A stretch of DNA of 48,732 bases, the filler included, from Jimgerdemannia flammicorona (lineage: Eukaryota): the NCBI GenBank assembly GCA_003990765.1. It is 2 parts of 2 records of this genome, joined end to end, with 100 filler letters (N's around TTAATTAATTAA, not from the genome) between each part and the next. Parts side by side here need not be neighbours in the genome. Positions count along the whole stretch, not along the records: positions 24,423 to 48,732 come from RBNJ01000991.1; 1 more part is not named here. One strand, given 5' to 3'. Both the position numbers and the translations under genes were made by a program. Under the pieces are notes generated by a model. That model saw nothing but the letters and a program-made list of their open reading frames with translations. It ran no database searches and was not told where the DNA came from. Every line of letters begins with the position of its first letter. Within the stretch, counting starts at the first letter, position 1. This document shows, piece by piece, positions 23,843-48,624 of the stretch.

Positions 23843-24322
23843 TAGTGCATCGCAACCCGAGCCGACCCGTGTACATATTTAACCCGACCCGGAATTATAC
23901 GTCACCCGTCTTTAACCCGACCCGGAATTATACGTCACCCGTCTTTAACCCGACCCGGAATAATACGTCACCCGTCTTTAACCCGACCCGGAATAATACG
24001 TCACCCGTCTTTAACCCGACCCGGAATTATACGTCACCCATCTTTAACCCGACCTGGAAACGTACGTCACCCGTCTTTAACCCGACCCGGAATTATACAT
24101 AACCCGTCTTTAACCCAACCCGAGAAATATACGTGACCCGACCCGTATTTAACCCGACACAGACCCGTCTTTAATCCGCCTTTAAGCTACAAGGCACCAA
24201 AAAAAATATATTGCACATCTAAGATATATTTAGAATAAACAAACAGAAACATAATTAGGAATCAGAAATCAAAATGAAATCGGAAATAAATAGGAAGTAA
24301 ATCAGGAAAATAAAGAACTTAC
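23843..24322. mobile_element. One end of a probable hAT-type DNA transposon, running into the gap
   Basis: Begins TAGTGC like the MITE TIR; homology of the flank to 3741-3763 stops exactly here; ACCCG-rich subterminal repeats. Confidence 0.65.
23878..24180 (+). repeat. 33-bp tandem repeat TTTAACCCGACCCGGAATTATACGTCACCCGTC, about 7 full units plus degenerate ones
   Basis: Read directly; head-to-tail units with no spacers. Confidence 0.95.
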
Positions 24323-24422: not shown

Positions 24423-24634
<212 letters not shown>

Positions 24635-26061: not shown

Positions 26062-26182
26062 ACTTGGTGCCCATTAGCTAGTGATATCATTAGGATCTCT
26101 CACTTTTAAGCTAAATAACAAATAACTACTACAATAATTACTCTGACTACAAGAGTTATCCTCTACAAGAATTCAAGATAAG

Positions 26183-27261
26183 ATGGAAATGCATTCCCCC
26201 ATATTTTATGGATTTACCACTGAAGATTTAATCCTGATCTTTATCAAAGACTTTGAACAATTTGCTGTCATATGAGCTCTCAATATTGAAGCACAATTGG
26301 CCCTCTTACCTGTCAGCCTCAGAGGACCTACTAGAGACAAGTTCAATGCAGCTACTATTGCTGACACTGGTGCAGCCAAACTTACCAATATAAAGAACTT
26401 TCTCAGAACTACATACTATACTAAATAGATTAAGTAAGCTCTCAAAGATCAACTCAACACTATCTGCCAAGGACTCAATGAAGACTCTAACTCATTCTAT
26501 ACTCAAATCTGCCACCAGATTATCTTGGTTAGCTATAATAATGCCCTCAAGGAATAGATAGCTGACTCAACCTTCTTAAAAAGAGTCTATTATAAAATTG
26601 CTCTAACAATCTGATCTACTTCAGCTGCTCTGACTCTTGACTAGAAAGTGGTCTTTGCATAGAGATATTGGACCATCAGATACCTTGCTGAACACTCAAT
26701 AGAAAGGATAACTGGCATCAAGATAGAGCCACCAAAACTAACCAGTATTATATCCACTATAGCTCTCAATAGACAACTATCTCCACCTACCTCAAAGATG
26801 GCCAAAACCAACCCAGTGGAGGAACTCACCCAGTAATTTGTCAAGATGACTGCACACCTTAATGACATTGTCAGAAAAGTATGAAGTATCTACAGGAGAC
26901 CAGTGCAGAAGTTTGTAGCTACTATAGAGGAATATACTATTATATGCTTCAAATATAGAGAAGAAGACCACTATGCAAAGAATTGTATGACTGAAATAAG
27001 ATATAGAGCTCAACCAAGTAATACTATCAGAACTAGAGAACAAATCAATACAGTAGTTATTAAAGAGATTGGTAATACTGATGATGAAGAATACTATGAG
27101 AAGTCTAAATTCTACTCTGTTACTGAAGGTACCAGAACTCAGTCCAAGCCCTATGATAAGAAGGACAACAACAAGCTAGTTGGAAGATCAAAAAATACCC
27201 CAACCATCACTATTAAAAGTAAGATCCAATCTGAGAAGATTGATCAAGATATGGAGTTAGA
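26183..27261 (+). pseudogene. gag: gag of element 2 (continues after 33133)
   Basis: PIFYGFTTED; decayed knuckle CFKYREEDHYAKNC at ~26945-26988. Confidence 0.75.
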
Positions 27262-27343
27262 CATCTTTCTCTGGTAACATTCAGGTTACACAATCCTTTG
27301 GCAACACTTTCGACACAGTTTCTGGAGAAAAGCTACTAGTATC

Positions 27344-29358
27344 ATGGCAACCAACGAGCATCCTGAGATACGTACTGGGCAGGGTGGCCCTGGAGTGTTT
27401 GAATGGCAGCAAGTGGGGAGAGGCCCCAGCTTGGGGGGAAGTATGAGGGGCCTGCTGGTGGGAGGCCATGGTGGAGGAGGGGGCAGAGCTGGAGGTCCAG
27501 GGTCTGGCAGGGTGAGCTTTACGGAGAAGGTGAAGGGGGGTTGGCAGGGAGCTGGACTGGAGAGCTGGCTGAGAGGGGGGAAGGTACCGGTAAAGGCTAC
27601 CAGGCAGCAATCTCTTGGGGGTACCTCTCTGGAGGGCCATAGGGGTGGAGCTGGGGGGGTAGCAGCTGGGGCGGGGACTGTTGATGGGGGTGTGACAGGT
27701 GATCTGGAAAAAAATCTAGATGGGACTGCTGATGGTGAGCCGAGCAGTGGGAAGGGCACAAGGCCTGGGGACCTGGCGGATGGTGTAATGGGACTGGCAG
27801 TAGCTCTGTTACTCAAGAAGTTGATCTCAGCATTCATGGTCACACTGTGCTTCTAGGGCTTAGCAGTGATGGTGAAAATGGTGTTGGAGCTTATCACTAA
27901 GCAGGTGGCAGGAGCAGCTTCAGTGAAGTTTCTGAAGGGACTGGAGGGGGTGGAGGTGGGTTTTGAGGAGGTTGAACCACTAGAGGAGACACTGAAGATT
28001 GGGTTGGTGGTTGGAGAGGTGTGTGTTCCAATGGCGAGATGTTTGAAATGGGATCTGAGGGTGGTCCAACTGCTGGTGAAAGGAGTACTCATAGTCTCAT
28101 AGTGACAGCAATGGAGACAAGGAAGAGAGTGGAGGATGTCATGGTGGAGTATGGAGAGGTGGTGGATATTGGTTTCAGGGTCTGGGAAGGGACCATGCTC
28201 AGGACTGGGGATGTGGATGTGAGGATTCAGCTGGCTGGGAAAGAGGCTACTGGAAAGGCGAGGGACTGGCCTTCAGTGATGGTTTGGAGAGCATTCCTGT
28301 GCAAGGTGATGCAGGTAAAAGGAAGTGAAGAAGAGGAGGAAGATTTATTAGAAGCGCTGGAAGAACTGGATGGGGCTGTGGAGCAGCAAGCTAAGGCCTG
28401 GAAGACTTTCGAGGAGTTGACACGCCTGGAGGTAGTGGATGGAAAGAGGATTTGAGTGGACAAGGTGTAGTGGGAAAAGGCTCAGGGGCAGAAGAGGCAG
28501 AAGGATCTGCTGGCTAAGCTGGGGGGTGGACTACAGAAGGATGGGAGCATGAAGCCAGGTGCAGAAGGGGCTGGAGTGAGTGTCTGGGCTGGTGAGAGGA
28601 GTGGGAATGATGGGGCAAAGACAGGGAAGGCAAAAGAGGTGAAGATTAGCAATCCATATGCTGATGGCACCTTAGAGGTTTGGGACAAAGTCTGGGAGAA
28701 CTCCCCCACCCCTTCCCCTCTTATCAGATATGGCCTGGCTTCCAGGAACAAGTCTGGGGAGGATGTAACAATGCTGGGGACCCAGCAGGTGAAATTCAGC
28801 ATTCCGGAGATAATGAATGGGGACCAAGTAGTGGTGGCCGGGGAGGAGGAACTGGTGGATATCCCGGAGGTGTGGGATGAGGATGCGAGTGCTGGAGCTG
28901 ACACCATGATGCTGAATGGAGGGAGGCCAGCGACCCCTGGCGGAAAGGAGGTGGGGAACCTACTTTGGATGTACTGGATGATGAATAACCTGGCAGCAGA
29001 AGAGCTGGGGGAGGTGGACTTGTGTGGGATGAGTGACGAGTACTGGACAAGAATTTTGCAGGGGGAGGGAGTGCTGATGGCACTGAAGGCGGAAATTCTC
29101 GCAGTGTATCTGGAGGAGGAAGGGTATGAGTTGGTGGTAGTTGCTGGGAAGAAGGCTGAGTACTGTTGGAACAGGCATCATGGGTTGCAGCTTTGGCAGG
29201 AGGCTTGCATCAAGTACAGAGAGGAGTTTGAGGAGAAGGCTAATGAGGAGATGAATGAGCTGTTGACTGGATTGGAGGCTCAGAGGGCTGAAGAGGAGGA
29301 GGTGATGGCTGAACATAATCTGGACACAGCACAGGGGGAGATGGACATGGAGCAGTAG
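27344..29358 (+). pseudogene. LINE A ORF1 (Gly-rich N-terminus, possible RRM-like core, acidic C-terminus)
   Basis: Tiled ORFs 27344-27856, 27866-28102, 28021-28455 and 28549-29358; homologous to 43092-43862 (MARCL.WD, GKEATG..RDWP). Confidence 0.8.
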
Positions 29359-29388
29359 GGATTGATTGAGAACAAACCGTATTTCATT

Positions 29389-32300
29389 ATGAACAGTACA
29401 ACCAATATTTTTTCTTTGAACGTAAATGGGCTAAGGGGCACAGTTAGGTACAGGAATATTTTTATTTGATTGAAGGGATTGGAGGCCGATCTCTTCCTCT
29501 TGCAGGATGTCAGGTGTGAGAATGATTCTGATAGGATAGAATGGACTATGGAATGGGGTGGCATGGCGATTTAGAACAGCAAGGTTGGGATTCTGGTTCA
29601 GAAAGGCAGAGGAGAGATAAGGGATGTAAGGAGCTGGAGGGAGCAACTGGTCTGGGGTGAGTGGATTCGTACAGGTTGGGAGCCAGTCACAGTTGGCTCC
29701 TGTTACTGCCCTGCTGTGTGGGGGGAGCAGGTTGATTGGGTGAAAGGGCTCCTGGAGAGTGAGATCCTTGCTGAAACTGGGTTGGATATGCTTAGAGGAG
29801 ATTTCAATATGGTTTGGGATATACAGCTGGATAGAACTGATGGAGGATGGGGTACTAAGAGCAGAGGTGGGGGGCTGGTGATGTGGGAGGAGGTCGAAAG
29901 GCTTGGAGCACTGGTGGATGCTGGTAGGAAGCACTGGGGGGACAAGAGGGTATATACACATTGGGCTGGAGGGCTGGGGACAAGGATTGATTGGATTCTG
30001 ATAGCTGACTGTTGGGGCCACGATGTTTGGAAGATGCTAGAGGTAGAATGGTGTCTGTGGTCAGATCACTAGAGCCTTTTAGGATAGGGGTGTTTTGGGG
30101 GAAGTGGTGATGGGCCTGGACATTAGTGCCTAAATTCCTCCTTGTTGGATGATGAGTCCCAGTGGGAGGAGTGGGCGAAAGACATTCAGCTAAAGGTAGA
30201 GAATTGGCGGCAGGAAGGGGCTGCAATTGGGGTTCGGTGGATGAGGATGAAAGAGATGGCCAGGTTGTACTGGAGCAAGGCTGGCAGAGTGGCTAGGAAG
30301 CAGCAAAGGTGGAGAGTGCATTGGGCTTCTACTAGATTGGCTAAGCTCCTGGAGGAGTGGGCGAGACTGGCAGTGGTGGAGAGAGAAGAGGATTGGAGAA
30401 TAACGAGAGTGAAGATGGAGGTTGGGGAACTACAACAAGTGCTGTGGGAAGAGGAAGAGTTAAGGATGCAAGGCCTGGTGGCACAGCTTCGTTGGCAGGG
30501 GCTGGAGGAAGGGGAGAGACCTTCCAAGTTTCTCATGAGGACACTTCGAGCGAGAAGGGTACAGCAGTGGTAGGAAGGGGTACTTGACTCAAATGGTTTA
30601 CTAGTGCATGGTGTATAGGATATCCTTGGAATGCTGAAGGCGTGATGGAGTGGATTATGGAGTGAGGAGGAGGGTGGGGCAGATGCTATAGCCATTGACC
30701 AAACATTAGAAGATTGGCACCCACCACAAGCTGAGGGATTAGATGACCTGGTGATGCCTGTAATAGAGGATGAGATCTGCCAGGTTCTTGCCGCGACAGC
30801 CTTGGGTATGGCGCCTGGGGAGGATGGCCTACCCTGGGACTTCTGGAAGCGAATGGTTGGAGTCCCAGGTATGTTGGGGGAGCTGACAGCACTGTGTGAC
30901 TTTATATTGCAGTCAGGAAGATGGGTAGGGGAGCAGGATCTTGGACTGGTGATGCTGCTTTATAAGAACAAAGGAAGATGAGAGGATTGGAAGAACTGGC
31001 GGCCAATAATGTTGCTAGATATGGACAGAAAGTTGGTGACTAAGGTGGTGGTTGCAAGGCTACAGAAGGTAGCCCAGCAAATTGTGGGTGTTGAGCAGAG
31101 AGACTTCATAGGGGGTCAGCTTATTAGAGATGGCACAGCCTGGGTATATGGAGTCATTGAAGGTGCTCGAGCCTGTGGACTGGATGGGCATCTTGTCTTC
31201 TTGGACCAGGAGAAGGCTTATGACCAGGTGCGGTGAGTCTGGCTGGCAAAAGTATTAGATAGAATTGGGGTTCCGGTCCCATTTTGGTCAGTGATAGTCA
31301 GCCTACTGGAAAGGAGTAGAGCTGTACTCATGTGTAATGGGCATAGAGGGGTAGCATTCCCTCTGGGTAGGGGAGTGCCCCAGGGGGGCCCACTGTCCCC
31401 CATTTTGTATGCTCTTTCTTTGGAACCTCTAATGGACAGGATTCGATGGAGGATAGTGGGGCTCTCTATCTATGGAGTTGGCTGGAAAGTTGGAGCCTTT
31501 GCGGATGATATGGTGGTTGGTTTGGGAGTGACTGCTGATGTCGAGGAGCTTAAGAAGACAGTGGAGTGGTATGAAGAGAACTCTGGAGTGAAGCTGAATT
31601 GGCACAAGTGTGAAACAATGGTGCTGAGCAACAGCCTGGTGGGCAGAGAGGTTATTGGAACAATTGTCCCCACCGGAGAGGCAGTGCGGTACTTGGGCAT
31701 CTATTTGTCAGTCTATAGATCTGTTTTGCCCAGGCTGTGGTGGGAGCAGAGGATTGGAATTTGGGAGGAGGATCTGTAGAGTTGGGGGGGAAGACACTTC
31801 TCTCTGGCAGGAAGGATCTCAATTTTGAATGTATACTGGCTGCCGAAGCTGTGGTATTTGGCTTATCATCTGGACTTCCCAGCCTGGGTGGTGAAGAGAT
31901 TGGTAAAGGTGGCCAAGGGATGGATTTGGGCTGGCAGGCAGAGTCAGATTGGTTGGGAGACTTTGTCCCTACTGGTGGCAAGAGGTGGTCTTGGGCTGGT
32001 GGACTTCTCCAAACAACTACACTGCTTGAGGGCATGGTGGCTTAAGAGGGCAGTGGAGTTGTATGGAGGGGGCTGGGTTCCCCTGCTGCAGAATGTCTGG
32101 AAGAGGTAGTCATCACCAAGAGGCGCGACTAGTGATCTTCTTTCATTAGTTGGGCTTCGGAACACTGCACAACTGAGATATAAAGGCTTCTGGTGGGGGA
32201 TAGCTGAGGGGGTACACCACATTGGTATTCGCTGGCAAGGGGATGAGGGGGAGAGGGCTTGGGGCCTGGCGATGTGGAGATGGGATGGCATTCTTCTAGG

Positions 32301-33045
32301 AGGCATGTCTTTACTTGATTTCAACATTGGTGATGAGATTGAATGCCAAAGGGGACCAGGCCAGGATCTGTGGCCTAGTGGTTGGCAAGGAGTTGGAATT
32401 AGTGAGGAGTGGGACTGGAATGGGGTTCAGACCTAGAGTACCGCAGTGAAAAATTGGATGCTGCTGAAGTACTGAGTGGTCTGGTGGCATGTACTGAGGA
32501 GGAATGTGATGCTTAACTTCCGCTCTGGACACCTTGTTGTAGGGGGCTGCTTTGACTGTGAGGAGTGCCATAATGTAGGGCAGAAAGGAGAATTTGTACA
32601 GATGCCAGAACATTGGCTAGGGGAGTGTGAGGTGTTGGGAGACTTTTGGTGGGCCATTGGAGACTGCTTGGGGGTGAGGCATAGGGGAGATGATGTATGG
32701 GGTAGGTGGGAAGACCTGGGGGATCGATTGGTAGGAGGGGTAGGGGAGGAGTGGATTACTTTAGGCTGGGCATTGGCTATTTGGATTGGGCTGGCTGGTC
32801 ACTGGCTATTTGTATTTGAGGAGAAAAGGTGACAGAGCTTGGGGAGCTGGTTATCATGGTGGCAGTATCTTACAGAGGATACCTTGACAGGCTGGTGGCT
32901 TTGTTGGGGGCTGCAGGGGGGTCAGAGGCGCCGCTTGGTGGTAAAAATCTGTGGTCAGAGTGGTGGGAGAGTTGGAGTTGTTGGTGAGAGGGTGGTCTTT
33001 ATATGTGAAGAGGTGGAGAGGGGCCCCCCGATGGGGATTGGGTAG
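29389..33045 (+). pseudogene. LINE A ORF2 (APE endonuclease, RT, C-terminal Cys/His motif)
   Basis: SLNVNGL, GDFN, RIDWIL, SDH; PGEDGL, WRPIML, DQEKAYD, GVPQGGPLSP, FADD; CFDCEEC..EHWLGEC. Confidence 0.92.
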
Positions 33046-33439
33046 TGGGTGGTAATATTGTATACTTATTCATAGACTGGTAATAAAGACAGAGTCCAAG
33101 GGACTATAAAAAAAAAAAAAATATGGAGTTAGATAAAGCTGCCCACCAAATTATTGAAAACACTACTCCAGTCTCAGGAGAAAGTAAAAGTAAGAAAGAA
33201 TAGAAGCTGTATAAGACCAAGATCTATCAGTATAATATCTACAAGGACCTCAAAGGAACAGAAGGTCAATGCTACTTTTGGACAACTAGCAGAAGTCTCT
33301 ACCTTCAGACAGTAGTTGAGAGTAGAGCTTATAACCACTATCAAGAACCAAGATTACAAGATCATAGAAGCTCACAATGCACAAGAAGATGAACAAGAAA
33401 ACTCAGGTGAAGAATCTAAAGATCAGCACAAGACCTCAG

Positions 33440-33790
33440 CCTATACCCAATATCAGATTAAAGATTGTATCTTTAATGCTATCATTGATACCAGTGCTGG
33501 AGGATGCCTTATGAGCAAGAAGACAATTGACCACATAGGCTAGAACATTGAAGAATCTATCAAAATGATCTATGTTACAGCAGATGGTATATGAGCTACC
33601 CCTTTAGGTAAGATCTGAGAAGTTCTCATCAAGATCAGAGAAGCTACCATTTTAGTAGATGTAATCATTACAAGTATCACCAACTATGATATCCTCATTA
33701 GTAACTAATAGCTTCACAAGGCCAAAGCTATCATTGACCTCAATGCTCAGAAGATATAGATCAACTATAGAGGAAGAAAGATATGAGTCT
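33440..33790 (+). pseudogene. Aspartic protease of element 2
   Basis: AIIDTSAGGCLM; ADG...TPLG; YDILI. Confidence 0.75.
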
Positions 33791-34149
33791 CTATTAATAT
33801 CCACAAATAAGTACTATCAGATATGGAGGAAGAAGATGAAAAGAATACTACACTAAGTATATAAGAACAAAAGCAAGACAACTAAGCTCACAGATGAGCA
33901 GTAGTACAACAAGATCATTGATGGCTATATCTCTCAAAGAAGATGCCCCTATAGTGCCAGAATGTACTGCTCTGAACACCTAAATAACTACTAGTCCTGT
34001 ATCAGTGAAGTCAGAAAAATCTGTCAATAAAAGCATGAGCAAGAAGTAGCTGAAGCAAAAAAGAAAGCCAAAGAAGATGACCAGCCCCCAGAGCTTCAAG
34101 CTGATAGTGATGATAAGGAGAAATAAGAACCAGACATCACTCTCAAGGT

Positions 34150-34520
34150 CAAGAAGTTTCACCCCAAAGCTAAGATCCCAGAATATAAGACTAAAGGAGT
34201 CATAGGAATAGACCTTGCTAGTATCCAAGATGCTATACTTGAACCACAAACCACTACTCTACTTGGCATTAGAATTGGAGTTGAGTTACTAGAGAATTAT
34301 GTCAGAATTATCAAGACTAGGAGTAGTCTGGCCAAGAGTGAAATCTCAGTTGAAGGAGGAATCATTGACTCTGATTATACTGGTGAGATCTTTCTTATAG
34401 TCAGGAATCACAACCCCACCACCCTATTCAAAGTCAAGAAGCATGACAGGATTGGCCAGACTGAAGCCATTGAACTCATCAAGACTAAGAGAGGAAAACA
34501 AGACTTTGAATCTACTGGAA
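34150..34520 (+). pseudogene. dUTPase domain of element 2
   Basis: GIDLAS, TRSSLAK, VEGGIIDSDYTGEI, DRIGQ, RGKQDFESTG. Confidence 0.85.
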
Positions 34521-34699
34521 GAGAAGTCTATACTGCTACCAAGATTACTGAACTCAAGCATAAGAAAGACAAAGACCAGAACAAGTACACATATATCATT
34601 GGAGAAAACTTTCTCCTAGAAAAACAACTTCTCAAAATTCTATATCAGAATAAAAGAGTACTTACCACAGACTTTAGAGATATCTATAATTAAAAACCT

Positions 34700-35398
34700 A
34701 AGTACTATTATAAAGTTGATACTAGTGATACTAAGTCCATCTATCAGAAAGTCAGACCCATATCACCTGCCTAAAGAGAATGGCTGCCAAGACTCCAAAC
34801 AACTACAGAAGTCTATACCTTTCTCAGACTGACATCTTACTATAGAAGATTCATCAAAGGATACTCCAGCATTATAGCATCTATCTATGAGCTACTGAAG
34901 AAAGAGATCAAGTTTAAATAGACTAAGAAATATCAAGAAATCCTTAATAAACTCAAGACCAAGTTGACCTAAGTATCTATTCTCAGAAGACCAGATTGGA
35001 ACCTAGAGTTCATCCTATAGACAGATGTAAGTGCTGTAGGACTTAAAGCAGTGCTAGCTCAGAAGAAAGATAAATATAAATATGTTATCTCCTATATAGG
35101 CCCAGATACTTATGGAGCAGAAAAAAACTATGAGTCATATAAGCTTAAATGCTTAGCAGTAGTCTGGGCAGTAGATAAGTTCTACTACTATCTAGCCAGA
35201 AAATACTTCACCATTCAAACATATTATTCTGCTCTCATCTGGCTATTCTACACTCTGAACTCCAAAGGAATATATACTAAATAGATCTACAGACTGTAAG
35301 AGTATGACTGTACTATCAAATACCATCTAGGAAGAACCAAAGTCAATGCTGATACACTCTCAAGGACATCCTAAAATACCCTCATCAAGACTATTTAA
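34700..35398 (+). pseudogene. RT N-terminal stub fused to RT thumb and RNase H of element 2
   Basis: YQKVRPISPA.REWL|PRLQTTTEVYTFL..YYRRFIKGYS; DVSAVGL, ADTLSR; no YxDD region. Confidence 0.8.
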
Positions 35399-35628
35399 CA
35401 TGAATAAAGAACTATACTATAGATTAATTAGCTATTTTGAGTAGCAGAAAATACCCAACTATCTCGAACTCTGGACTACTACTATTATTAACCAGACTTG
35501 AAAATAATTTGAACTAGACAATACCACACTCAGAAAAGAAGAAAAGCTCATTATATCTAAATATAGAAAGTATCAAGTAATGAAGAAAGTATATGAACCA
35601 GGATACTTAAGAGGAACTAATACATATA

Positions 35629-35963
35629 CAGAAGAGGAGGAAGGCCCAGTGGGAGCCAAGGGAGTGAACCCAAGCCAGTGTCAAAATGAACAGAAGACAT
35701 GTGGAAGAGCATATATAAGAGGGACAAACAAAGAACGTAACTGAAAATGCATCAGCCATTTATTACCACATAAAAACACAGTTCTTATATATAAAATATG
35801 ATGTCCCAAAAAGGAGGATGCACCACAACTCAGGGCAAACCGAATTAGGAACTACATGATCACTAGAGATAAGTAGAGATAAAGGAGGAGCCAATCCCTG
35901 TTGCAGGATAAAAATCACAAACAAATGCAAATAAAACAAATCCAAATTGGGATTAAAAAACAT
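35629..35963 (-). repeat. Inverted copy of PLE terminal repeat A
   Basis: Reverse complement of 36119-36454. Confidence 0.93.
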
Positions 35964-36118: not shown

Positions 36119-36454
36119 ATGTTTTTTAATCCCGATTTGGATTTGTTTTGTTTGCATTTATTTGTGATTTTTATCCTGTAACTGGGATTGGCTCCCCCTT
36201 TATCTCTGCTTATCTCTAGTGGTCATGTGGTTCCTAATTCAGTTTGCCCGAAGTTGTGGCATGTCCTCCCTTTTGGGATGTTGTATTTTGTATATAAGGA
36301 CCACGTTTTTACATGGCAATAAATGGCTGATGCATTTTCGGTTATGTTTTTTATTCATCCCCCTTATACATACTCTTCCACATATCTTCTGTTTGTTTTG
36401 ACACTGGCTCTGGGTTCGCTCCCTTGGCTCCCACTGGGCCTTCCTCCTCCTCTG
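36119..36454 (+). repeat. 5' direct copy of PLE repeat A (pseudo-LTR), overlapping the ORF1 frame
   Basis: Contains TATATAAG (36291) and AATAAA (36318); matches 39596-39916. Confidence 0.93.
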
Positions 36455-37589
36455 CTGTACTTCCTGCCCTTGGGGCTTCTGTCCTCATCAACAAGCTCAT
36501 GGATGAGGTTCTTCCTCCTCCTCCTCTCCCTGCCTTCACCCCTGCTACTGTCTCATTCGAGACCTATATCTTGTCTGTCATTCTTTCCCTCCCCCTGGAC
36601 CTTCGTCCCTCTGGTCATCTGCTCCTCTCTCAGTTCCAGTTGGTTCTTGCCCTCTCTGCCAAGAAGGCTTGTCTCTGCCATGATGTCAATATCATTGCTC
36701 TGCCTGCTATCTGCTACTCCATTCTCCCCAAGGCCCACCACCAAGCTCTCTCTGAAGAGATTTGTGCCACCACTGCTGCTGCCAAGCTTGCTGCTACTGA
36801 TGCTGCTGCTACTTCCACCACCACTGCTTCCACCTCCTTCCACCACACCTGTGCTGCCTTCATGGCCTTCACCTCCTCTCGCCTTTTGGATGCTGCCCTC
36901 TTCTGTAGCTTCACCATCCATGAGGTTCCTTCTGTCACTGCTGATATTGACACTATGTATTGTTTCCTCCTCACCAACACTTCTTTTGTTGCTCACCTTC
37001 ATGAGCAGGAGACATTACATGCTACCACTGCTGCTTGTGCCACTGCCACTACTCCCCTGTCGCCTCCCCTGAGGTTTCAGTCTCCAAGGCCATTCATGCC
37101 AAAGCCTGCACTGCTGCCTATGCTGAGGTCCATTCCTTCACCACCGCTGCTGCCAAGACCCCCTCCAAGACCCCCACCAAGACCCCCACCAAGCCCAACC
37201 AGGCTTCATCAGCCTCTTCTCAGTCTCTCTCCCCTGCCAAGGCTTCCTCCTCTATTCCCCCTGCCCCCAAGCATGGCCACCAACTTGGTTCTCACTCTGT
37301 CGGGGTCTGGTCTTGTGCTATCTGCTCTGGTCACCTCCACCATACCTACTGGCACCTGGCTAAGTCCATCTGTCCTCATGGTGGTATTCCTTGCACTGCT
37401 GCCCCTTCAGCTGCTTGCTCACCTTTGGCCTCCTCTGCTGATTCCTCCTCCACCCATGCCCCTGAATATAAAGGCTGTACAAAAGCCTGTGGCTATAAGG
37501 TCTGGCACTCTGATGGGGTATGCTCCCATTTGTTGAGTTCATCACCTTCAAAAAAAGTCAGAGGGAAGGAGAAGGCCTCCTGCTCTTAA
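36424..37589 (+). pseudogene. PLE ORF1 (frameshift near 37060) with Cys/His-rich C-terminus
   Basis: ORFs 36424-37536 and 37035-37589; first in-frame ATG at 36499; CAICSGHLHH..CPHGGIPC and CTKACGYKVWH..C. Confidence 0.65.
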
Positions 37590-37599
37590 ACTTCCCCCC

Positions 37600-39600
37600 A
37601 GTATAGTTCTCCCCCGGTGTCTCTGTCCCTTCTTGGATTTCATCATCACTTCTGGTGTACTCTAAGTGGTTTCTCATGTTGTCCCCCCTTCACCTTTCCT
37701 AGTTGCTCATCCCAAACTTTCGGGTTTATTCTTCTCTTGGAACACTTTTGTCTCCTCCTTTCTCTTTAGCTGATTGCCCCCTTTCTCCTCTTCAAGTCTT
37801 TGCTTTGTCCTTGGGTCCTTGCTTCATTTTTCCTACAGCTCCCTCACAATTCTCCTTCACTGATTCGGCTCATCTCACATGTTTTCATCGTGCTTTTGAC
37901 CTTGCCATTTTCTTTTAAGATTGTGGTGAGATGTTCTCACTATTTTGTTCCCAGCAATTGGGTCCCCCCTCCCAATGTCTCTTCATACTGCATATTCCTC
38001 AATATGGCTTACTTGCTATCTGTTCCCAGATGCGCTTGCTCTTGCTTGGTTTCGGACTATGCCATATGTACCATGCTTAAATTGGTCAAGCAATTGCCCA
38101 TGTACTTGCTCACAGTCACTAATAAGAATCAAGGTTTTGTACTTATTCCTAAGTCACTCTACCTTAATGGCCTTTCTGCCCTCCTTTGAGCCATGGCTTA
38201 TGGGCCTAGTGCTCTTAGATTGGATGAGATTCTCACTCTTCTTTGGGTTTCTCTGGCTCATGCTAGATCACTTTCAGATTCTCCATTCACAAACCCTATT
38301 TTTAACTTCTTCCAGGACTCTTTGTCCTCTCTAGATATTTGTCTTCCGGTTTTCTATGCCCTTCCTAAAGTTCACAAGTCTACTTTGGCTTGACATCCCA
38401 TTATGGCTGCTTGTAATTCCCCTACCACCAAGATTTCAAAGTGGTTATCCCACTTCTTCCTCTCCTAGATAGCTCTCTTACAATACCATCTTGGGCCTGA
38501 GTATACTATTCTTCATGATACTCAGGAGCTCGCCCTTCTCTGCTCCACTATTGTGCCTGTTCACTATTTTTCCCACTTGGTCTCTGGTGATTTCTCCTCT
38601 TTTTATACTGCTATTTGTTTTGATGAGATCGATGATTGCCTTCACTTCTTGGGTTCCATTGTTTTTCCTTTGGACTCCCAGTCTCATTGGCTTCCATTGT
38701 TGAGCTTATGCTCCTTGTCTATGGCTCTAATTATTTTGAGTCAGCCCTTGGCTCCTTTTACCAGACTTCTGATATTGCTATGAGAATGAATTATGCCCCC
38801 ATCCTTGCCAACCTCATTGGCCTGGCCCATGAACTGCATGTGATATGTGATCTCTCTTCATCTCTTTCCATCATGTTCTGGGCTGGAGATATCTTCTTTC
38901 ACTGATATATCGATGACTTTATCATCTTTGCTGTTGCTGGTATTGATATCCCTAGTGTGTTTCTGGGCATCTACCCTCCCCACCACTCCATTACTTAGGT
39001 GTGCAGTATGACTAGTATCCCCTTTTTGGACCTTTCCATTTCTCTTTCTCCTTTCCAAACTGTTGTTTATTCATGTTTTCCCCATTCCCAACAGTTCTCT
39101 GACTTCTTGTCCAATCATCCTCATCATACTCTTTTTGAATGTGTTCATAGTGAGGCTCATTGTCTTGCACTATACTGCTCCTATCATTCCGATTGGGTGT
39201 CTGCTGTTCAGGTTCTTGGCAACTTCATGGTCCATCACCATGCCTATCCCATTTCTATCATTCATGATCTGCTTGCTTCTGTTGAATGATCTGTTGTTCG
39301 CTCCACCCTTCTCTCTCCTCTTTACCCCTCCTCCCTTCTCTCCCTCTCCTCTTACCCTCTCTGTACCCTCTCTTCTTTCCCACCTCTGATTCTCATTGTA
39401 CCATTTGATCATGCTTACTAGATTGCTCAATGTCCTGATACTGTCCTGTGCTCTTCTCTTTCTCGCCATGGACTTTCATCTCTTTCTCAACACTCTCTGA
39501 TTGCTCATTCACATCTTCCTTCTGTTTCTTCTTTAATCCATCACTCTCATTTTGCATTTTCGTCACCTTCTGGTGCCTCTGGCTCTGCTGGAGAGGATTT
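37600..39600 (+). pseudogene. PLE reverse transcriptase ORF2
   Basis: LSLGPCFI, FYALPKVHK...PI, GDFSSFYT, IAM..NYAPILANL, YIDD, IPFLDL, SNHP. Confidence 0.9.
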
Positions 39601-39916
39601 GGATTTGTTTTGTTTGTGTTTGTTTGTGATTTTTATCCTACAACTGGGATTGGCTCCCCCTTTATCTCCACTTATCTCTGGCAGTCATGTGGTTCCTAAT
39701 TCAGTTTGTCCTGAGTTGTGGTGCATCCTCCCTTTTGGGATGTCATATTTTGTATATAAGGACTGCGTTTTTATGTGGCAATAAATGGCTGATGCATTTT
39801 TGGTTATGTTCTTTGTTTGTCTCCCTTATACATACTCTTCCACATGTCTTCCATTCGTTTTGACACTGGCTCTGGATTTGCTCCCTTGGCTCCTGCTGGG
39901 CCTTCCTCCTCCTCTG
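39596..39916 (+). repeat. 3' direct copy of PLE repeat A
   Basis: Matches 36134-36454; ends CTCTG followed by TA. Confidence 0.93.
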
Positions 39917-41562
39917 TAACAAGATAAGAAGAACTATATTGTGGCCTAAGATAGAAGAAGATCTACACCAATCTATCAAAGAGTATAACAAGTATCAAAA
40001 ACAGAAATAAGATCAGTAAGACTAGGCACCTATATCATCAAGAATTGAACTTATTCTCTTCCACCACATTATAATTGACATCATTGGACCACTATCAGTA
40101 ACTCTATTAGAAAACCACTATATTATAGTTATTGTAGATCTCTTTATGAAATAGATAGAAGTAGGAGCATTATAAGAAGCCAATGCTCTCTCTATTACTG
40201 ACTTCCTGTATTGAGAAATCATCTACTACTACAAGATACCAAGGCAAATTACCACAGACCATGGTACAGAATTTGTCAACAGATTCTATAAGATAATGTA
40301 TCAGAAATACAAGATTCAGTATATTAAGACTACCATATATCACCTTTAAGAAAATAAATAGATGGAAAGAACAAACAAGACCCTCAAGAATATTCTGGCC
40401 AAGATCTCAGATACATATGAGAATTGGGATAACTACCTCCCAACTGCCCTCTCTATCCTATGAGACATATGATTACAGAGTACACACTTTATCCCAAGAG
40501 AACTGCTCTTTAGAGAAGAAGATTCTGATAGAACCTCAGCTACAAATCTAGACCTAACTTAGTGATGAATTGACTCAGAAATCCAGAGACTACACCAAAT
40601 CAGGAAGAAGGTAGAAGATTATATCATCAAGTTATAAGCACTAATAAGAAATAATATAGAAAAGAATCACGAGACCCTAGAATCCATTCAAATTGGAGAA
40701 AAGGTCTTGCTATATCAAAATATAGTAGAAGCCTCATGGTCATAAAAATTAGAGCCTAAATGAGAAGGACCCTTCTATGTATAAGATATCAAGAGAACTA
40801 TCTTTTGGCTTAGAAAACTCTCAGAGACTATACTATCTACTATAGTATATAGGAACAGACTCAAGAAGTACCATGAACCTATATAAGAGAAGTAAAACAT
40901 GATGACCACCCACAAAGTTCTAGTCTGTGAATCATAACAGTATATCCTATGACCAGCAGGTAATCTGTCTAGACTATTCTCTAAGAGATATAGTACTAGT
41001 AACTACTTATCTATGAGACTTTTGAAGCTAGGGGAGTTTGAACTATCAACTAATTAGTCAAGATCAAAATTAGGCCCTTGCTCTATATGAAGGGAGCTAT
41101 TTTTCACTATTATGCCAAAATACATAAGAAAGATACCAGCCCATAAATACTACTTTTTGACCTCCTGCCAGAGATTATAGGATCAGAAATTTTTTCAGAC
41201 TAGACTAATGAATAAGGACATTTAAGAGAAGATCTGTATTCAGAAGAAAGATATAATAGTAATCTCAGAATAATGATATCATTATAGGAGACAGCCTTTC
41301 CTTACAAGCTATCAGATTGGAGTACAGGAAGATTAAATGGTATGACTCACCCAGGCTACAAAATGAGCAATAATGTCATAATAACTACATGATAGACATC
41401 TCAAGGGAAATAAAAGAAGAACCAAGAAACTGCAGCAGTAGCAACTCAACCAAGACTCACAAAATCTCAAAATAGTTCAAAAGACTCACTATAAATAAAA
41501 TACCTACTACTTACCAAATCTCAAGGTCCAGAAACCACTAAGGCTTCTCAGTCTAAGAAAGG

Positions 41563-42336
41563 ATGTTCTAAGATATCAGGAGAGCTATGAGAACCTACAT
41601 CAGAAGGATTTCTAGCCTCAACTTAGGTACTGGTGACTCTTATCACTTTACTCTCTATTACTATAAAATGGAGACAAGGATTACTACCACTACTGAATAC
41701 CTCTGGATATAGCAGAAATATGAAATAGGAAATCTTCTCTGCTGGGAATTCCCTCAGACCAGTCCCCAAGAGTTATAAGATGTCATCTCTATGGATGTAT
41801 GCAAATTGAGAGTAGCCAAAAAGATCTATCAGATCTTCAGGTATACACCTTGGTCAATCTTCAACTTGGAGTATACCAGAGTCTCAGACTATAAGGAATT
41901 GTCAGCTTGCTGTAAAGATGCACTAGAAGCCATGGTAGCCACAGAAGCCCAATATATCATCACTCTCAAAAGTGATGATATAGAAGAGTTCTAGAATCCC
42001 ATCCTCAAGAACAATCCAGATCAATTTCTGTAAGGATTAATCTCAGTATTCCAAGACACCAGTATCTAGGTCAGATCCCCTCAAGATCCCACCTTTGTTC
42101 CCTACTTTATAGAGGAAAACATCATAGATTGGAGAGCCCCTGATCTCCTTCCTACCACTATTGAATATGATGATATTACCAGTAATGACATTATTCTACT
42201 AATTGATATATATGAAATAAATGAAACAGAAATATTTGCTGATCTTATTTTCTTCAAAGATATCCTGTCCCCAACCTCTAGCCTTGATGATAGCAATGAA
42301 GATGAAGCCTCCAGGATTTTGAACATTTTACACTAA
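41563..42336 (+). pseudogene. 258-codon ORF inside the 3' LTR of element 2
   Basis: ATG 41563 to TAA 42336 without frameshift; QKYEIGNLL..RVAKKIYQIF..WSIFNLEY. Confidence 0.65.
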
Positions 42337-42855
42337 TTTATTTGTATAACTATTTGTTTGAATACTTAAATATTTCAGCATTCGGATCTTGTACAACTAA
42401 TTGTATAAGCACTTGAATTTAAACTTATAACCTGAAGTTTTCTGTGTTTAAATATCATATTTGGTTATTGGATTTTATATTTAGCATTATATCTTAGCAA
42501 CTATTGAATTATATTTTGTATAAAATACCCCTCTCATTTCCTTTGAAATAAAGTCAGTATTAAAAACACTCAAGCATTCAAGTACCCAACTACTCAAGAG
42601 CATAAAAGTTCCAGTCCTCTACTCAATTCCATGCAAGTAAATTCAAGAGACAATAGAATAGTTTAAAGATAAGAAGTTTGAGGGGGACTTCTTTTGCTCA
42701 AACCATTCAGAGCAAGCTAAGCCACACGGACATCTTTTCATAACAAGCAATATGTTTTCAAGTTTTCCCATCATCTATTCTGGTGTACAAGATGCAGCAG
42801 GAGTCTAGCTACAGTATACAATAAGTCTCATCTGTTTCGGTGGAGTTTTTGTCGA

Positions 42856-44698
42856 ATGGCAACTCAGAGATCATCAAGCTCTGAGTGTTTGGAGAGAAGG
42901 AGGCCTGGTCTGGATCTCCCTAAGAGTTTTGTGGCAATAGTTGGAGCTGGTGTAGGGGCAAGAGGAGTAGGTGGTCAGGGGAGACAGGCTGATATTGAGA
43001 GTTGGCACACAGTGATGGGGGGCAAGAGGGCAGCTACTAGGCCCATGGGGGTAGAGCTGGGGGGATGTAGTGTTGACAGGAGTGGAGTCAGGTGACTGGC
43101 CAGGTGACTGGTCAGGTGACAGGTCAGGTGCCTGCTAGGGGCCAGGGGTCTGGAAGTGGTGTGGCTGGGACTGGTATTCCTGGGGCTGGACCGGTGGCTG
43201 GGGTGATTACTGGAGTGTCAAAGAACAGGAAGAAGGTGATGATGGCAGCAGGTTCTGGTGAACTGATGGTGCATCCCTTCTTCCATAAGTCGGTATCAAC
43301 ATGGGCCATTTCAGCGAATTTTCTGGGACTGGGGATGTCTGCTAGAGAGGTCTTGCAGCTAGTGGGAGAGGAGATTGCAGAGGCAGAGTTACTGAAGTTC
43401 ATCCCATCAGCTGAGGTAGTTGAGATAGGATTTGTTGAGGAGGAGGAGATGGTGAAGGCCTTGGAGAAAGGGCTGGTCATCAAGAACATCAAGGTTGGTA
43501 TGGCGAGGTGCCTGAGATGGGACCCATGGGTAGTGCGACTGGTGATTGAAGGGCTGCTGACATTAGAGAGACAGGAGACCAAAGGAATGGTGGCAGAGGT
43601 GCTGGGGGCATTTGGCGAGATGGTGGATTTTGGATTCATGTTCTGGGAGGGGACTAAGCTGAGGAATGGCAATTGCGAGGTGATGGTGAGGCTGGAAGGC
43701 AAGGAGGCCACAGGGCAAGGGAGGGATTGGCCAGAAGTAATTTGTATCAGAGAGCAGGAGTGCAAAGTGTGGAGAAGGAAGGGTTCTGAACAGGAGGAGG
43801 AGGAATTGCTAGTCACCCTAGAGGAGAGAGAGGCTGCAAAGGAACTGTGGAAGTGGAGATGAGAGGAGTTTGCCAAAGACTGGATCTAGATCCTGACAGA
43901 TGGGAGGAGGAAGAGGTGGTGAAGGGCAAACTGGGAGCACCTGCAGACAGTCCTCCAGGGCTCAGAAAGGGAGGAAAAGGAAAGAGCAGAGGTGGCCAAA
44001 AATCAGATGGAAGAGGTGGAGATGGCTGAGGTGTCCTTTTTATAACTAGGGGGTGTGGAGAACTCCACTCATGTACCGGTAAAGAGGAAGTGGGCTGATA
44101 AGGAGGAGGTGACTGCTGGGAGCTTTGAGGAGGTTATCAAGGTGGTACTGGAGACCCAGTTGGAGGATGTCCACATGGCAGGAGCGGCAAATGTCATTGG
44201 GAATGCCCAGAAGCAGGCAAAGTGGTTCAGCTGGAGAAAGGCACTAAGGAGGACGACCTAGTGGATGTGGCATCCAACATGTCAGTGGATAGAGAGATGC
44301 TGCAGGAGCTGAGTAGGACCCTGAGGCCTGCCACTCCTGGGCCCATGGTGATGACGGCAGATGACTGGTATCAGGCAGTACTTGAGGAACTTGTAGAGGA
44401 GGATATCAAGGAAGTGGATGTATTCAATAGATCATAGGAGGCCTGGGAAGGGTTCCTCAATGTGGTATTGTAGGGGCCAAAGTTGGTGATAGTGATGGTG
44501 GCAGTGCTTCTGGATGATGAAGGATATGAGGTAGATGAGGACCATATGGCTGATATCAGGAAGGTAGCATCAGAGTGAGTGGATGCCTTCTGCAGTGGTG
44601 GGAATAGAGTCCATATCTGGAGGGCTATCTGCAAGGAATGGAAGGCAATAATCTGTGGTAGGGCTGAAAAGGTGGTGGTGACTCCAGCTGAGCTTTAA
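42856..44698 (+). pseudogene. LINE B ORF1
   Basis: MATQ start; homologous to LINE A ORF1; short VTGQ repeats. Confidence 0.78.
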
Positions 44699-44710
44699 AT
44701 ATTTATATCC

Positions 44711-47700
44711 ATGATGATGAACAGTCTATGTATATTATCACTAAATATTGATGGTTTGTGTGATGGAGTGAAGTGAAGGCATCTGTTTCGGTAGCTGAAG
44801 ATCAGGAGGTATGATGTAGTATTTCTGCAGGACATTCAGGCCTATGGAGAGCAAGATTATGAGGAGTGGAGCAAGGAATGGTTTGGTAGTACAGGGTGGA
44901 ATGAGCAGGTGGGGCTTGGGGAGAGGAGAGCTGAAGGAGGTTGAGATATATAGTGATCAATTGATCTGGGGGAGATTGAAAGGAGGAGCTGGCAATGGGC
45001 TGGTGGTTGGCTCTGTGTATCTGCCAGTAGTTGGCAGAGAGCAAAACCAATGAGTGGAAGGTTGGCTGGATTGGGGAGGCCAAGATGAGATTGGGCTGGA
45101 TGTTCTGGGAGAGGACTTCAATATGGTGCATGACAGGACACTAGATAGGTCTGATAGTGAAGTTGGTGTGGTGGTTTTAACAGGGCTCTCGCGATGGCTG
45201 CAAATTGAGAAGGAAATGGGATTGGTTGATGGAGTATGATAATGTCAAGGTGCGAAGTCAGGACCATTCACTAGGTAGCAACTGGTCAGTGAGGATTTGG
45301 TTGGCATGAGGATTGACTGGATTCTGGTAGCAGAATGCTGGGGCAATGTTTTGGATTTGACAGAGGTACAGTGGTGTCCCTGGTCAGATCACTGGGGTGT
45401 GGAGGTGTGTGGGAGATTCCAGGCGGCCAGTGGCAGTGGAGGCAGATGGAGACTTAATGTGGCACTACTTAAGAGACAGGTGGAGCAGGACCAGTTTGTT
45501 AAAATTGCAAGAAAGGAAGTGGCATGGTGGAAGAACAGTGGCCAGTCAATAGCACAGTGGTGGGGGAAATTTAAATATTTGGCAGGTACATATTGGTGTA
45601 ATGTAGGAGAGGTAGCTGGGAGGGAGCAGAAGGATAGAAAAAGGAGAGTGGAGCAGGAGCTTTGCTGGTGGCTGAGGCTTCTGGAAGGAGAGAACTCCTC
45701 CAGGGTACAATGCTCCCTGTTGATTAAGGAGATAGCTGAGTTGCAGTCATATTTGAAGGTAGCAGAAGATAGGGTAGTGGATGGGTTGCTGGCAAGATTG
45801 TGAGCAAAGTGGTTGGAAGAAGGCAAGCGACCCACCAAATACTTGTCCAGAATCCTGAAGGCCAGGAGGGTGCAGCACAGCTGGGCTTCGGTGTTGTGAG
45901 AGGATGGAACTGAGGTGACTGATATCACAGATATGCTTGGGGAGATCTCTGGTTGATGGTGCACCCTATGGCAGGATGATGGAGGGCTGGTGGAGGGAGA
46001 GACAGCACTGGAGGCTAATAATGATTTGGTTGGTGGTTGGCCAGTAGTGGCAGAGCCTGTGATTGGTGAGGCAGTAATAGGTAGGGTGACCCTTGAAGAG
46101 GTGTTGGAGGTTCTGAGGAAAGTGCAGGCTGGTTCATCACCAGGGGAGGATGGACTGCCTTGAGAGTTCTGGAAGGAGTTTCGAATAGAGTTTGGGGCAT
46201 AGCTTGTAGAAATGGTGAACTTTATGCTAGGGGAAGGCTGCTGGATTGGCAATGGCTCCTTAGGGCTAGTCTCTCTGCTCTATAAGGAGAAAGGGGACAG
46301 ATGTGTGTGGCAGAACTGGAGGCCCATCATGTTGCCGAATGTGGATAGGAAGTTGGTCTCCAAGATTCTGGCAGGGAGAATGCAACAATGGATTGGCTGA
46401 TTGGTGAGTGATGAATAGTGAGGGTTTGTGAAGGGAGACAGATTCGAGATAGCACAGCCTGGGTGCAAAATGTTTTGGAGGGTTGTAGAAGCTGGCAGGT
46501 AGATGGAAGAATGGTGTTCTTGGACCAGGAAAAGGCGTACAATAGGGTGCGATGGAGCTACTTGGAGGTGGTTCTATGGAAGACTGGGTTTGGCATGGGG
46601 GAGGCTCGCAAACTGATGGGTCTGGTGCAAGGTTGCCAGGCAGCAGTGTTGATGAATGGGTAGAGTGGCCCAGAGTTTTTCTTAGGGCAAGGTGTACCAC
46701 AGGGGGACCCTCTTTCGCCCCTACTTTATATTTTATCTTTGGAGCCCTTGTTGGCATAGCTGAAGGGGAGGCTTACTGGATTGAAGATGGGGGATGTGGT
46801 CTGGAAGCTGGGGGCCTTTGTGGATGATATGGTGGTAGGGTTAGGCAGTATAGAAGATGTGGTGAGCTTGCAGGAAGGGGTAGGACAGTATGAGATGTTG
46901 GCAGGGGTGAAACTGAACTGGGGCAAGTGTGAGACCATGGAGCTTGGAGCTGGCTTGGGGGAGCATGGACACTTTGGACAATTAGTTGGTCCTGGGGAGG
47001 CAGTTCAATATTTGGATATCTGGTTCTCAGTATATGGGACAGTGTTGCTGAAAGAGTAGTGGTGTAGATTGGTACAGAAATGGGAGAACACCTTGGTGGG
47101 CTGGTCTGGGAGGGGCTTCTCTTTGGTTGGGAGGATTGTAGTCTTGAATATATATTGGTTACCAAAGCTGTGGTACTTGGGGTACCACCTGGACTTTCCA
47201 GGATGGGTGGTGCAGAAACTGAAAAAGGTGGTCGAAGGATAGCTATGGCAGAGAAGAAGACTACAGATTAGTTGAGAGGTAATGGTGACGCTGAGGGCAG
47301 ATGGAGGTCTGGGGCTGGTGGACTTTAGAAGGCATCTGAAGGCACTTCAGGGCTGGTGGGGTTATTGAATGGCAGAATTAGGAGGGGAGGGTTGGAGAAA
47401 ACTGGCTATGGAAAACTGGGAAGTTAGGTTCTGCCCCCAGAGTGAGATTTGGAAGGATATGTGAGGTTTGCTCCAGGTTGGAAGGGTTGGCAGGTTGCAC
47501 TATCAGGGATTCTGGTGGGGTATTGTGGAAGCTTGGCTAGTGATGGGACTTATGGGCCCAGAGCCTGGCAAAGAAGAGGAGGACCCAGAACAGCAATGGT
47601 GGCAATTTGGTGTGATTCGTATTGGCAGCCACCAGTTGGTTGAATACTCTTTAACTGGGGCAATGGAGTGGATCCAGACAGGTCTGCTTGAGAGGTGGCC

Positions 47701-48300
47701 AGTTGGTTGGCAGAAGGCTGGGTTTGGAGAAGAGTGGGAGTGGGGTTGGGTTTGGGGCTGGGGGACCTCACTACTCAAGATTGCCCCACCTAAGTTCTGG
47801 GTGGTATAGTGGTGATTTTTATGGAGGAATGTTATGCTGGGGTATAGGATGGGGTGGATGGTGGATGAAGGTGTGAAGGAATGTGAGTGGTGCTGTGAGC
47901 TGGATGGGAGAGTGGTGCAGATGCCAGAGCATGTTCTGGCAGCCTGTCCAGGGGTTGAAGGATTTTGGCAGACATTAGAAGGTTATTGGAGGGAAGAGAG
48001 TGAGCAGGCAGGGGGCCCCACTTGCCAGATGATCAAGCGTCGACTGGTGGGAGACATTGGGGATATCTGGGGAGACCTGGGTCGAATTATCGGCATCTGG
48101 GTACTGATGGCAGTATACTGGCGATGGGTGTTCGAGAGAGATCCTTTGATGGAAATTGGAGAATTGGTAGAGTGGTGAAAGGGGTTACTTTTGGAAGTGG
48201 TGCAAGGGTGGTGGTATCAGGGGCAGAGGCACCAGTTAGGGGCTATGAAGAAGGTGTTAGACATTGTTCAGAGGAGTCAGGAGCACCTCATACTTGGTGA
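44711..48300 (+). pseudogene. LINE B ORF2 (APE endonuclease, RT, Cys/His motif)
   Basis: SLNIDGL, EDFN, RIDWIL, SDH, PGEDGL, WRPIML, DQEKAY, GVPQGDPLSP, FVDD, CEWC..EHVLAAC. Confidence 0.92.
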
Positions 48301-48438
48301 GAAGGGGGTAAGGTGGAAAGAAGGAGTTGGTTGAAGTTGGTTAAAGGGCTCTACTTATATATGTTATGTGATGTTAGTAGTGGATTGTGGTTAGTTGATA
48401 TTATATTAGATAGTTCATAATAAAGGAGTCCAAGTAAC

Positions 48439-48474
<36 letters not shown>

Positions 48475-48624
48475 AGTTTGAGGACTATAAGATCTTGGAA
48501 AAGTACTCTAATAGAACTTACTTATAAGAAACTTATAGTTGGTCTAAGAGATACACCTTGAAGAGAATCTGATGTACTTGGAGAACTCAGTGCCCACTAT
48601 ATGATAGTATATACTAAATTGAAC

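Follow-up and report, generated by a model that had tools for sequence, protein, structure and literature searches.

A probable decayed protein-coding gene inside the long terminal repeats of a Ty3/Gypsy retrotransposon in the Jimgerdemannia flammicorona assembly

Introduction

Long terminal repeats (LTRs) are normally non-coding, and accessory genes borne by LTRs are otherwise known mainly from a few retroviruses. In mouse mammary tumor virus (MMTV), sag is an open reading frame (ORF) that occupies most of the U3 region and ends before the promoter and poly(A) signals; its product, Sag, is a membrane glycoprotein for which Pfam includes a model. The nef gene of the human and simian immunodeficiency viruses (HIV/SIV) and the bel/tas region of foamy viruses lie at the 3′ end of the genome and reach into U3, and their products act in trans. 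Here, we describe a stretch of 48,732 nucleotides, filler included, from Jimgerdemannia flammicorona (assembly GCA_003990765.1; hereafter the window), in which each LTR of a dead Ty3/Gypsy element holds a 279-codon ORF interrupted by stops. With a probability of roughly 80%, we read this ORF as a decayed but genuine protein gene of an orphan family, which was constrained while the elements were active and then decayed neutrally by C>T and G>A changes.

In the openly accessible literature searched, ORFs in LTRs led almost exclusively to papers on MMTV, an "LTR ORF" in this sense was described for MMTV alone, and the extra ORFs of retrotransposons were found solely outside the LTR. For MMTV, the accessible passages of one study tie expression of the superantigen to the open reading frame of the 3′ LTR (PMC2118998). 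For the rice elements Retrosat2, RIRE3, and RIRE8, excerpts of another describe an extra ORF, ORF0, between the 5′ LTR and gag-pol (PMC3485330). Extracts from a third report on fungal elements place a dUTPase between the protease and the reverse transcriptase (RT)/RNase H in PosPlaTy3-5 of Postia placenta and mention the same enzyme in elements of Phanerochaete chrysosporium and Tuber melanosporum (PMC2864245). The "LTR ORF" of PMC12037069 was considered as a precedent and set aside, as the term there means the polyprotein ORFs of LTR elements and not ORFs within the LTR. The available passages of a paper on LTR structure contain no mention of ORFs in LTRs (PMC3601003), and the openly accessible literature searched yielded no account of fungal Ty3/Gypsy elements with a protein gene in the LTR.

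The window ORF resembles MMTV sag in being a complete ORF inside the LTR, and hence present in both repeats. MMTV is a vertebrate retrovirus, whereas the carrier here is a Ty3/Gypsy retrotransposon, apparently fungal, with a product that looks soluble and has a basic head and an acidic tail; the two genes have no sequence relation (see the Pfam search below). With nef and bel/tas, the window ORF shares a 3′ position into the LTR, an action in trans (proposed here), and an acidic region in the product, but those genes merely overlap the LTR while the window ORF is entirely inside it. No similarity to retroviral accessory proteins was found in sequence or fold searches (Pfam, PDB, Foldseek, and VIA-align), and the likeness to acidic activators of the foamy-virus Tas type, used here as a working comparison, is limited to the composition of the acidic, hydrophobic tail. 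Plant ORF0, as its authors present it in the excerpts, is likewise an orphan, fast-evolving ORF with no assigned function, carried by long-LTR Gypsy elements and conserved across diverged relatives, but it lies outside the LTR (PMC3485330) and is therefore present in one copy per element and absent from solo LTRs. PosPlaTy3-5 has its dUTPase at the same place as the carrier element, and the occurrence of such dUTPase-bearing elements in fungi is one ground for calling the carrier fungal; in the extracts, a figure legend names an "additional ORF of unknown function" with no position given, and an ORF in the LTR is not described (PMC2864245).

Results

Both LTRs carry a co-linear 279-codon ORF

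Comparison of the window with itself by blastn revealed a direct repeat pair at 24641-25938 and 41375-42683 (86.2% identity over 1309 columns). The 5′ LTR spans 24640-26061 on the + strand. The 3′ LTR is interrupted at 42683/42684 by an element resembling a long interspersed nuclear element (LINE): its first 1310 bp (41374-42683, +) run to the insertion point, and its final part resumes on the other side (48473-48606, +), opening on the second of the two copies of GAAGTTTGAGG, the target-site duplication, and closing with TATGATA. Past the LINE poly(A) tail and the duplicated GAAGTTTGAGG, positions 48484-48606 extend the match to 25939-26061. Because the LINE sits in the 3′ LTR and the match resumes beyond it, the LTR is 1422 bp long. 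Its ends were set by the 7-bp inverted repeat TGTCATA...TATGACA, by a TGG resembling the start of a primer-binding site (PBS) 3 nt further on, and by the gag ATG at 26183. The 5′ copy opens with (A)GTCATA, its first base being A where T is expected, and ends with TATGACA (26055-26061), while the 3′ copy opens with TGTCATA at 41374.

In both repeats, the ORF lies wholly within the LTR, at LTR positions 127-963 of 1422, which corresponds to 24766-25602 (+) in the 5′ copy and 41500-42336 (+) in the 3′ copy. Each copy comprises 279 codons including the stop, has a start that now reads ATA, and contains 8 internal stops, 5 of which are at shared positions. The original prediction, made from the sequence of the window, had placed a 774-nt frame free of indels in both LTRs of a Gypsy element (24829-25602 and 41563-42336). 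These frames are indeed co-linear, the LTR alignment being gapped only downstream of them, once by 1 nt and once by 10 nt; both repeats carry the ORF, and the domain order of the element is that of Ty3/Gypsy. The same prediction proposed an originally open ORF of ~257 amino acids. The ORF is open in intact homologues, but its true length is 279 codons, ~22 more than proposed, as it starts 63 nt upstream of the 774-nt frame. Both copies read ATA CCT where five of the relatives described below begin. We place the start at 24766 and 41500 because the relatives' MP-x-x-R/C start aligns to this ATA CCT and the ATA aligns, at the DNA level, with the ATG of L001, an intact copy on a metagenome contig.

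The 774-nt frame has 6 internal stops per copy, which had been described as complementary between the copies. The pairs given as examples are exact (codon 3, CAA/TAA; codon 48, TAG/TGG; codon 144, TGA/TAG), but complementarity is not general because codons 72, 144, and 157, that is 3 of the 6 stops, are stopped in both copies. Counting the terminal one, the full ORF frame contains 9 stops and the other five frames 13-31. Base-shuffled sequence holds 17.5-17.7 ± 4 stops, and 0.66% of 5000 shuffles reach 8 or fewer.

The ORF belongs to an orphan protein family

With stops read through as X, the frame matched 5 metagenome proteins at E ≤ 0.01 among 202 scored candidates, the best relative being P0001 (271 residues; E 8.5e-99, 67% identity, 100% coverage). 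A profile search of 1.84 billion cluster representatives retrieved 5 proteins, and a profile word search 12 proteins among 8000 scored candidates. Combined, the searches yielded 13 metagenome proteins in three subfamilies at 28-50% identity. The MP-x-x-R/C start is found in five sequences spanning all three subfamilies (the L001 ORF, P0001, P0008, P0010, and P0011); others, such as P0002, P0004, and P0009, start farther in. A hidden Markov model (HMM) of the family matched the window at 24778-25599 (E 1.5e-90 for the 5′ copy) and 41515-42333 (E 2.2e-95 for the 3′ copy), covering profile positions 7/8-277, and gave no further match in the six frames of the window.

At the DNA level, the single locus L001 came from a pattern search of metagenome contigs using P0008 alone. 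This contig of 1535 nt carries an open, compact, and intronless copy of 291 codons. Patterns drawn from an alignment gave 243 matches in metagenome contigs, none of which was confirmed, and the 125 pattern matches in viral contigs were not confirmed either. Among genome contigs, a 15-residue match in a bacterial metagenome-assembled genome (L002) was regarded as spurious. Nearly all relatives are on contigs of 0.6-2.4 kb; the contigs of P0018 and P0008 measure 19 kb and 4.8 kb, respectively. L001 also contains a 33-nt motif at 170-202 and again at 1481-1513 (82% identity), 1311 nt apart, a spacing near an LTR length; the motif may belong to a control element present twice, or L001 may extend out of one LTR copy into the following one.

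The protein was constrained and the copies then decayed by transitions

At each of the 11 columns with a stop in either window copy, those members of the nearest subfamily that cover the column show Gln or Trp, apart from Arg in one member at two columns. These include codon 144, where the relatives have Trp, in agreement with the ancestral TGG that had been deduced from the two copies. As the stops fall only at Gln/Trp columns (11 of 11), the proposal that C>T/G>A decay broke the ORF holds; stops beyond the reach of such decay were looked for, and none was found. Differences between the two LTRs are transitions in 145 of 170 cases and are enriched in CpA/TpG contexts (46 of 89 C/T and 35 of 56 G/A differences). 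CpG has nearly disappeared from the LTR copies (observed/expected 0.03-0.06), and the GC content of the window ORF copies is 37-38%, compared with 50% in the intact L001 ORF.

Between L001 and the window, the match is confined to the ORF and to the protein level (35-39% amino-acid identity over 195 residues by tblastx), with no nucleotide match by blastn below E 0.2 in the ORF or its flanks. Over 253 codons, identity with L001 at codon positions 1, 2, and 3 is 0.46, 0.62, and 0.39, respectively (chance level 0.25-0.28), and the difference between position 2 and position 3 (156 of 253 vs 98 of 253) has a Fisher p of 3.6e-7. This pattern points to purifying selection on the protein. As a control, the two LTR copies differ from each other at 41, 36, and 41 sites at codon positions 1, 2, and 3, an evenness that indicates neutral decay since insertion.

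The predicted protein has a basic head and an acidic, hydrophobic tail

Among the eight relatives examined, the first 45 residues have a net charge of +1 to +8 in seven; in the remaining one, P0018, the sequence begins within the core. In all eight, the net charge over the last 75 residues is -10 to -18, which bears out the acidic C-terminus predicted from the window, and these residues contain 18-25 bulky hydrophobic residues, often in clusters flanked by D/E. Such a composition is typical of acidic activation domains and short adaptor-binding motifs, and suggests that the product may have been a nuclear regulator with an activation-type or adaptor-binding tail. AlphaFold modeling, which the original prediction had recommended, gave a helical core and a disordered tail, but at low confidence (mean pLDDT 46.7 with 8 sequences and 51.3 with 13 sequences) and with no match to a known fold. 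No DNA-binding fold was recognized in the fold searches (Foldseek and VIA-align).

Candidate control signals flank the ORF

A candidate promoter element found by consensus match, TATAAAAG, lies at 24675-24682 (+), at LTR position 36 and 91 nt before the ORF start; its counterpart in the 3′ LTR reads AATAAAAG. L001 has TATAAAAG 80 nt before its ATG, and neither in L001 nor in the 5′ LTR is there another ATG between the motif and the start. Beyond the ORF, TATAAATA (25785-25792) and AATAAA (25812-25817), both on the + strand and together spanning 25785-25817, lie 183-215 nt past the ORF stop. The AATAAA follows TATAAATA at a distance of 27 nt and is retained in the 3′ copy at 42547. These two motifs are candidates for the promoter and the polyadenylation signal of the genomic RNA. 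As the pair lies near LTR position 1150-1180, downstream of the ORF, the ORF would lie in U3, and so at the 3′ end of the genomic RNA as with MMTV sag. Such an arrangement would fit an LTR of conventional type, in which a short R and a ~220-nt U5 follow the end of U3. Another occurrence of TATAAATA, directly before the ORF start of the 3′ LTR (41490), was rejected as a TATA box: L001 has CACAAACA at the aligned position, and the motif appears to have arisen by C>T decay.

The carrier is a dead Ty3/Gypsy element

A candidate PBS matched by motif, TGGTGCCCATTAGC, is located at 26065-26078 (+), 3 nt past the end of the 5′ LTR, and gag lies 120 nt farther than the PBS-like TGGTGCCC found at that distance from the LTR. 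The sequence ahead of the 3′ LTR, checked for a polypurine tract, is weakly purine-rich. The gag frame (26183-27261, +), read from the translation, starts at its ATG (26183) and extends as far as the first LINE insertion; it has no Pfam match and contains a decayed zinc-knuckle-like C-X2-Y-X4-H-X4-C at 26945-26986. Remnants of pol extend over 33451-35305 (+) and were identified with Pfam on translated DNA, stops being read as X. They comprise a protease (gag-asp_proteas, 33451-33642, +; a weak match, E 0.0037), a dUTPase (34166-34459, +; E 1.3e-16), and an RNase H (RT_RNaseH_2, 34922-35305, +; E 6.2e-22). An integrase core (rve) follows at 40077-40319 (+; E 4.7e-5), its 24 bits being below the Pfam gathering cut-off of 32.6.

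The order on the + strand, gag, protease, dUTPase, RNase H, and integrase, is that of Ty3/Gypsy elements. The LTRs are paired and have TG...CA ends with short inverted termini, and the integrase comes after the RNase H. No RVT_1 match was obtained between the dUTPase and the RNase H, whose Pfam matches are ~460 nt apart, and at 34690-34925 the RT-RNase H connection follows directly, in the frame, on the first RT motif. We read the absent RT core as an internal deletion in a dead copy, and not as an argument against Ty3/Gypsy membership. The carrier element is dead: its RT core is deleted, and it has received two LINE-like insertions and one 3.8-kb insertion.

Nested insertions and other repeats in the window

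The first LINE-like non-LTR retrotransposon (27262-33120, +) separates gag from pol; its features are a poly(A) tail, an RVT_1 match at 31237-31776, and ATATGGAGTTAGA as a target-site duplication of 13 bp. The second, within the 3′ LTR (42684-48472, +), likewise carries a poly(A) tail, with a target-site duplication of 11-13 bp. Both elements (~5.8-5.9 kb) are in the same orientation within one Gypsy element and are ~67% alike. They have in common a 3′ end of the form AATAAAG..AGTCCAAG..ACTAT(A)n and an extreme GC skew of about +0.45 on the + strand, and a third relative is found at the start of the window (14-1808).

The nested 3.8-kb insertion (36134-39916, strand not assigned) has 320-bp direct repeats at both edges (36134-36454 and 39596-39916, 88% identity), with a third, inverted copy just before it (35627-35947). 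Its GC and AT skews are strongly negative, and it includes a 401-codon open frame at 36331-37533; the ORFs of this insertion had no Pfam match.

A second Gypsy-type element has LTRs of 1.35-1.4 kb at 8532-9883 and 17757-19153 (84% identity) and an RVT_1 match at 15126-15653. In these LTRs, neither a stop-poor frame nor a match to the family HMM was found. A 486-codon open frame that has no Pfam match is part of a repeat (5900-7357, 20887-22208, and 19491-20438) whose further pieces, some direct and some inverted, show 77-88% identity. Just upstream of the 5′ LTR are a tandem array of 33-bp units (~10 copies) and a (TAA)n microsatellite (23812-24155 and 24600-24633).

Discussion

The evidence that the ORF was once a protein gene comes from its relatives, from the columns at which its stops fall, and from the codon-position pattern. 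An AT-rich LTR decayed by transitions might, by chance, be stop-poor in one frame; the 8 internal stops per copy would suit this idea, as would the 0.66% of base shuffles that do as well or better. It is refuted by homologues reaching E 8.5e-99, by the open 291-codon relative, by the codon-position signature, and by Gln or Trp at 11 of 11 stop columns, and we give it practically no credence. The ORF might instead be a host gene or gene fragment that was captured into an ancestral LTR, has no role in the element, and was open by chance or through selection on the host copy. In favor of such a passenger are the orphan status of the family, with no link to any retroelement protein in Pfam, the PDB, or the Atlas, the fact that the DNA context of the relatives was viewed over at most 1.5 kb, and the excess of lesions common to both LTRs (detailed below), which suits a gene dispensable to the element. 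However, three subfamilies at 28-50% identity keep a similar start (MP-x-x-R/C in five sequences), the same architecture, and their full length, for which long-term constraint is needed. The L001 copy, moreover, is compact, has no introns, and lies at a similar distance from a TATA element, and two weaker points lie in the same direction: the relatives are mostly on short contigs, as repeats assemble, and no longer or fused form of the family was found among 6370 candidates. A passenger thus appears unlikely, and we infer that the ORF was an accessory gene of the element.

The position of the ORF relative to the genomic RNA admits another reading, in which this RNA starts just past TATAAAAG at LTR position 36, and the ORF, lying in a very long R, is the first cistron before gag, in a position like that of ORF0 in rice Retrosat2. 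The motif does lie near the LTR edge (36 nt in) and 91 nt ahead of the start, it recurs 80 nt before the L001 ATG, and no ATG intervenes in L001 or the 5′ LTR; extra ORFs upstream of gag are also documented for plant Gypsy elements in the accessible part of PMC3485330. Such a leader gene would, however, require R to be ~1.1 kb long and the AATAAA of the 5′ LTR (25812) to be read through, while the second TATA-like motif, 27 nt before that AATAAA, suits a short R downstream of the ORF. We consider this arrangement very unlikely and prefer the reading in which an element gene lay in U3.

Several observations nevertheless weigh against a constrained accessory gene, or against parts of that reading. 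The LTR placement is read from the window element, the DNA context of the relatives being limited to the 1535 nt of L001, and no target-site duplication of the Gypsy element was recognized when the flanks of both LTRs were compared. The selection signal is a codon-position identity with the DNA of one distant relative, not a dN/dS ratio, as synonymous sites are saturated. The nearest subfamily has 153 invariant columns; both LTR copies depart from it at 27 of these, with identical changes at 19, while independent decay would give ~9 doubly changed columns by our own arithmetic from the counts. The excess is one of transition-type changes shared by both copies, and the shared changes include 5 stops and the loss of the start codon. 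The ORF may thus have been broken in the source copy already, before insertion, which would argue that the gene was not needed in cis. Part of the shared damage may predate insertion, or it may reflect gene conversion between the LTRs or hot spots hit in parallel.

As for expression, the promoter, the U3/R/U5 borders, and transcription of the ORF are all deduced from motif positions; only one LTR copy retains TATAAAAG intact, and a match of 8 nt makes weak evidence in AT-rich DNA. The function proposed for the product is a guess from composition, both AlphaFold models being poor, and the searches gave it no support. An hmmscan of Pfam-A with P0001, P0002, and P0004 returned 0 families at E ≤ 10, Sag included, and a PDB sequence profile 0 matches at E ≤ 10. 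The ESM Atlas gave unnamed clusters alone (0.83-0.92), one of which, mostly Mucoromycota at 0.89, is a lead only. Foldseek found nothing in the PDB at E ≤ 0.001, its top rows being generic helical bundles, and a wide VIA-align search had a best Z of 4.7, with none at 5 or above.

If the ORF was an accessory gene in U3, transcription could have started after TATAAAAG at the 5′ edge of the LTR, and the mRNA could have ended at the LTR's own poly(A) signal; this is the route we prefer, though with low confidence, and a spliced subgenomic RNA or the leader-gene arrangement would be alternatives. With its own promoter, ORF, and poly(A) signal, every LTR would be a complete small gene. Judging from composition, the product, in which a basic N-terminus is predicted to precede a helical core and an acidic tail rich in bulky hydrophobic residues, would most likely have served the element as a trans-acting regulator or adaptor in the nucleus. 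The fuller picture is more doubtful: the LTR would be a self-contained gene for a trans-acting nuclear regulator with an activation or adaptor tail, and some Ty3/Gypsy lineages, apparently of early-diverging soil fungi, would have evolved independently a regulatory gene in the style of complex retroviruses, with 5′, 3′, and solo LTRs all serving as expression units.

Retrotransposon LTRs are treated as non-coding control regions and are masked by annotation pipelines. A conserved gene borne by the LTR is present twice in each element, could be expressed from thousands of sites, and would survive in solo LTRs after the element itself is lost. It equips a retrotransposon with an accessory gene of a type that is otherwise linked to complex retroviruses. 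If it is true that the product regulates the element or counters host silencing, such genes would represent a new class of interface between transposon and host in early-diverging fungi, and a source of orphan genes.

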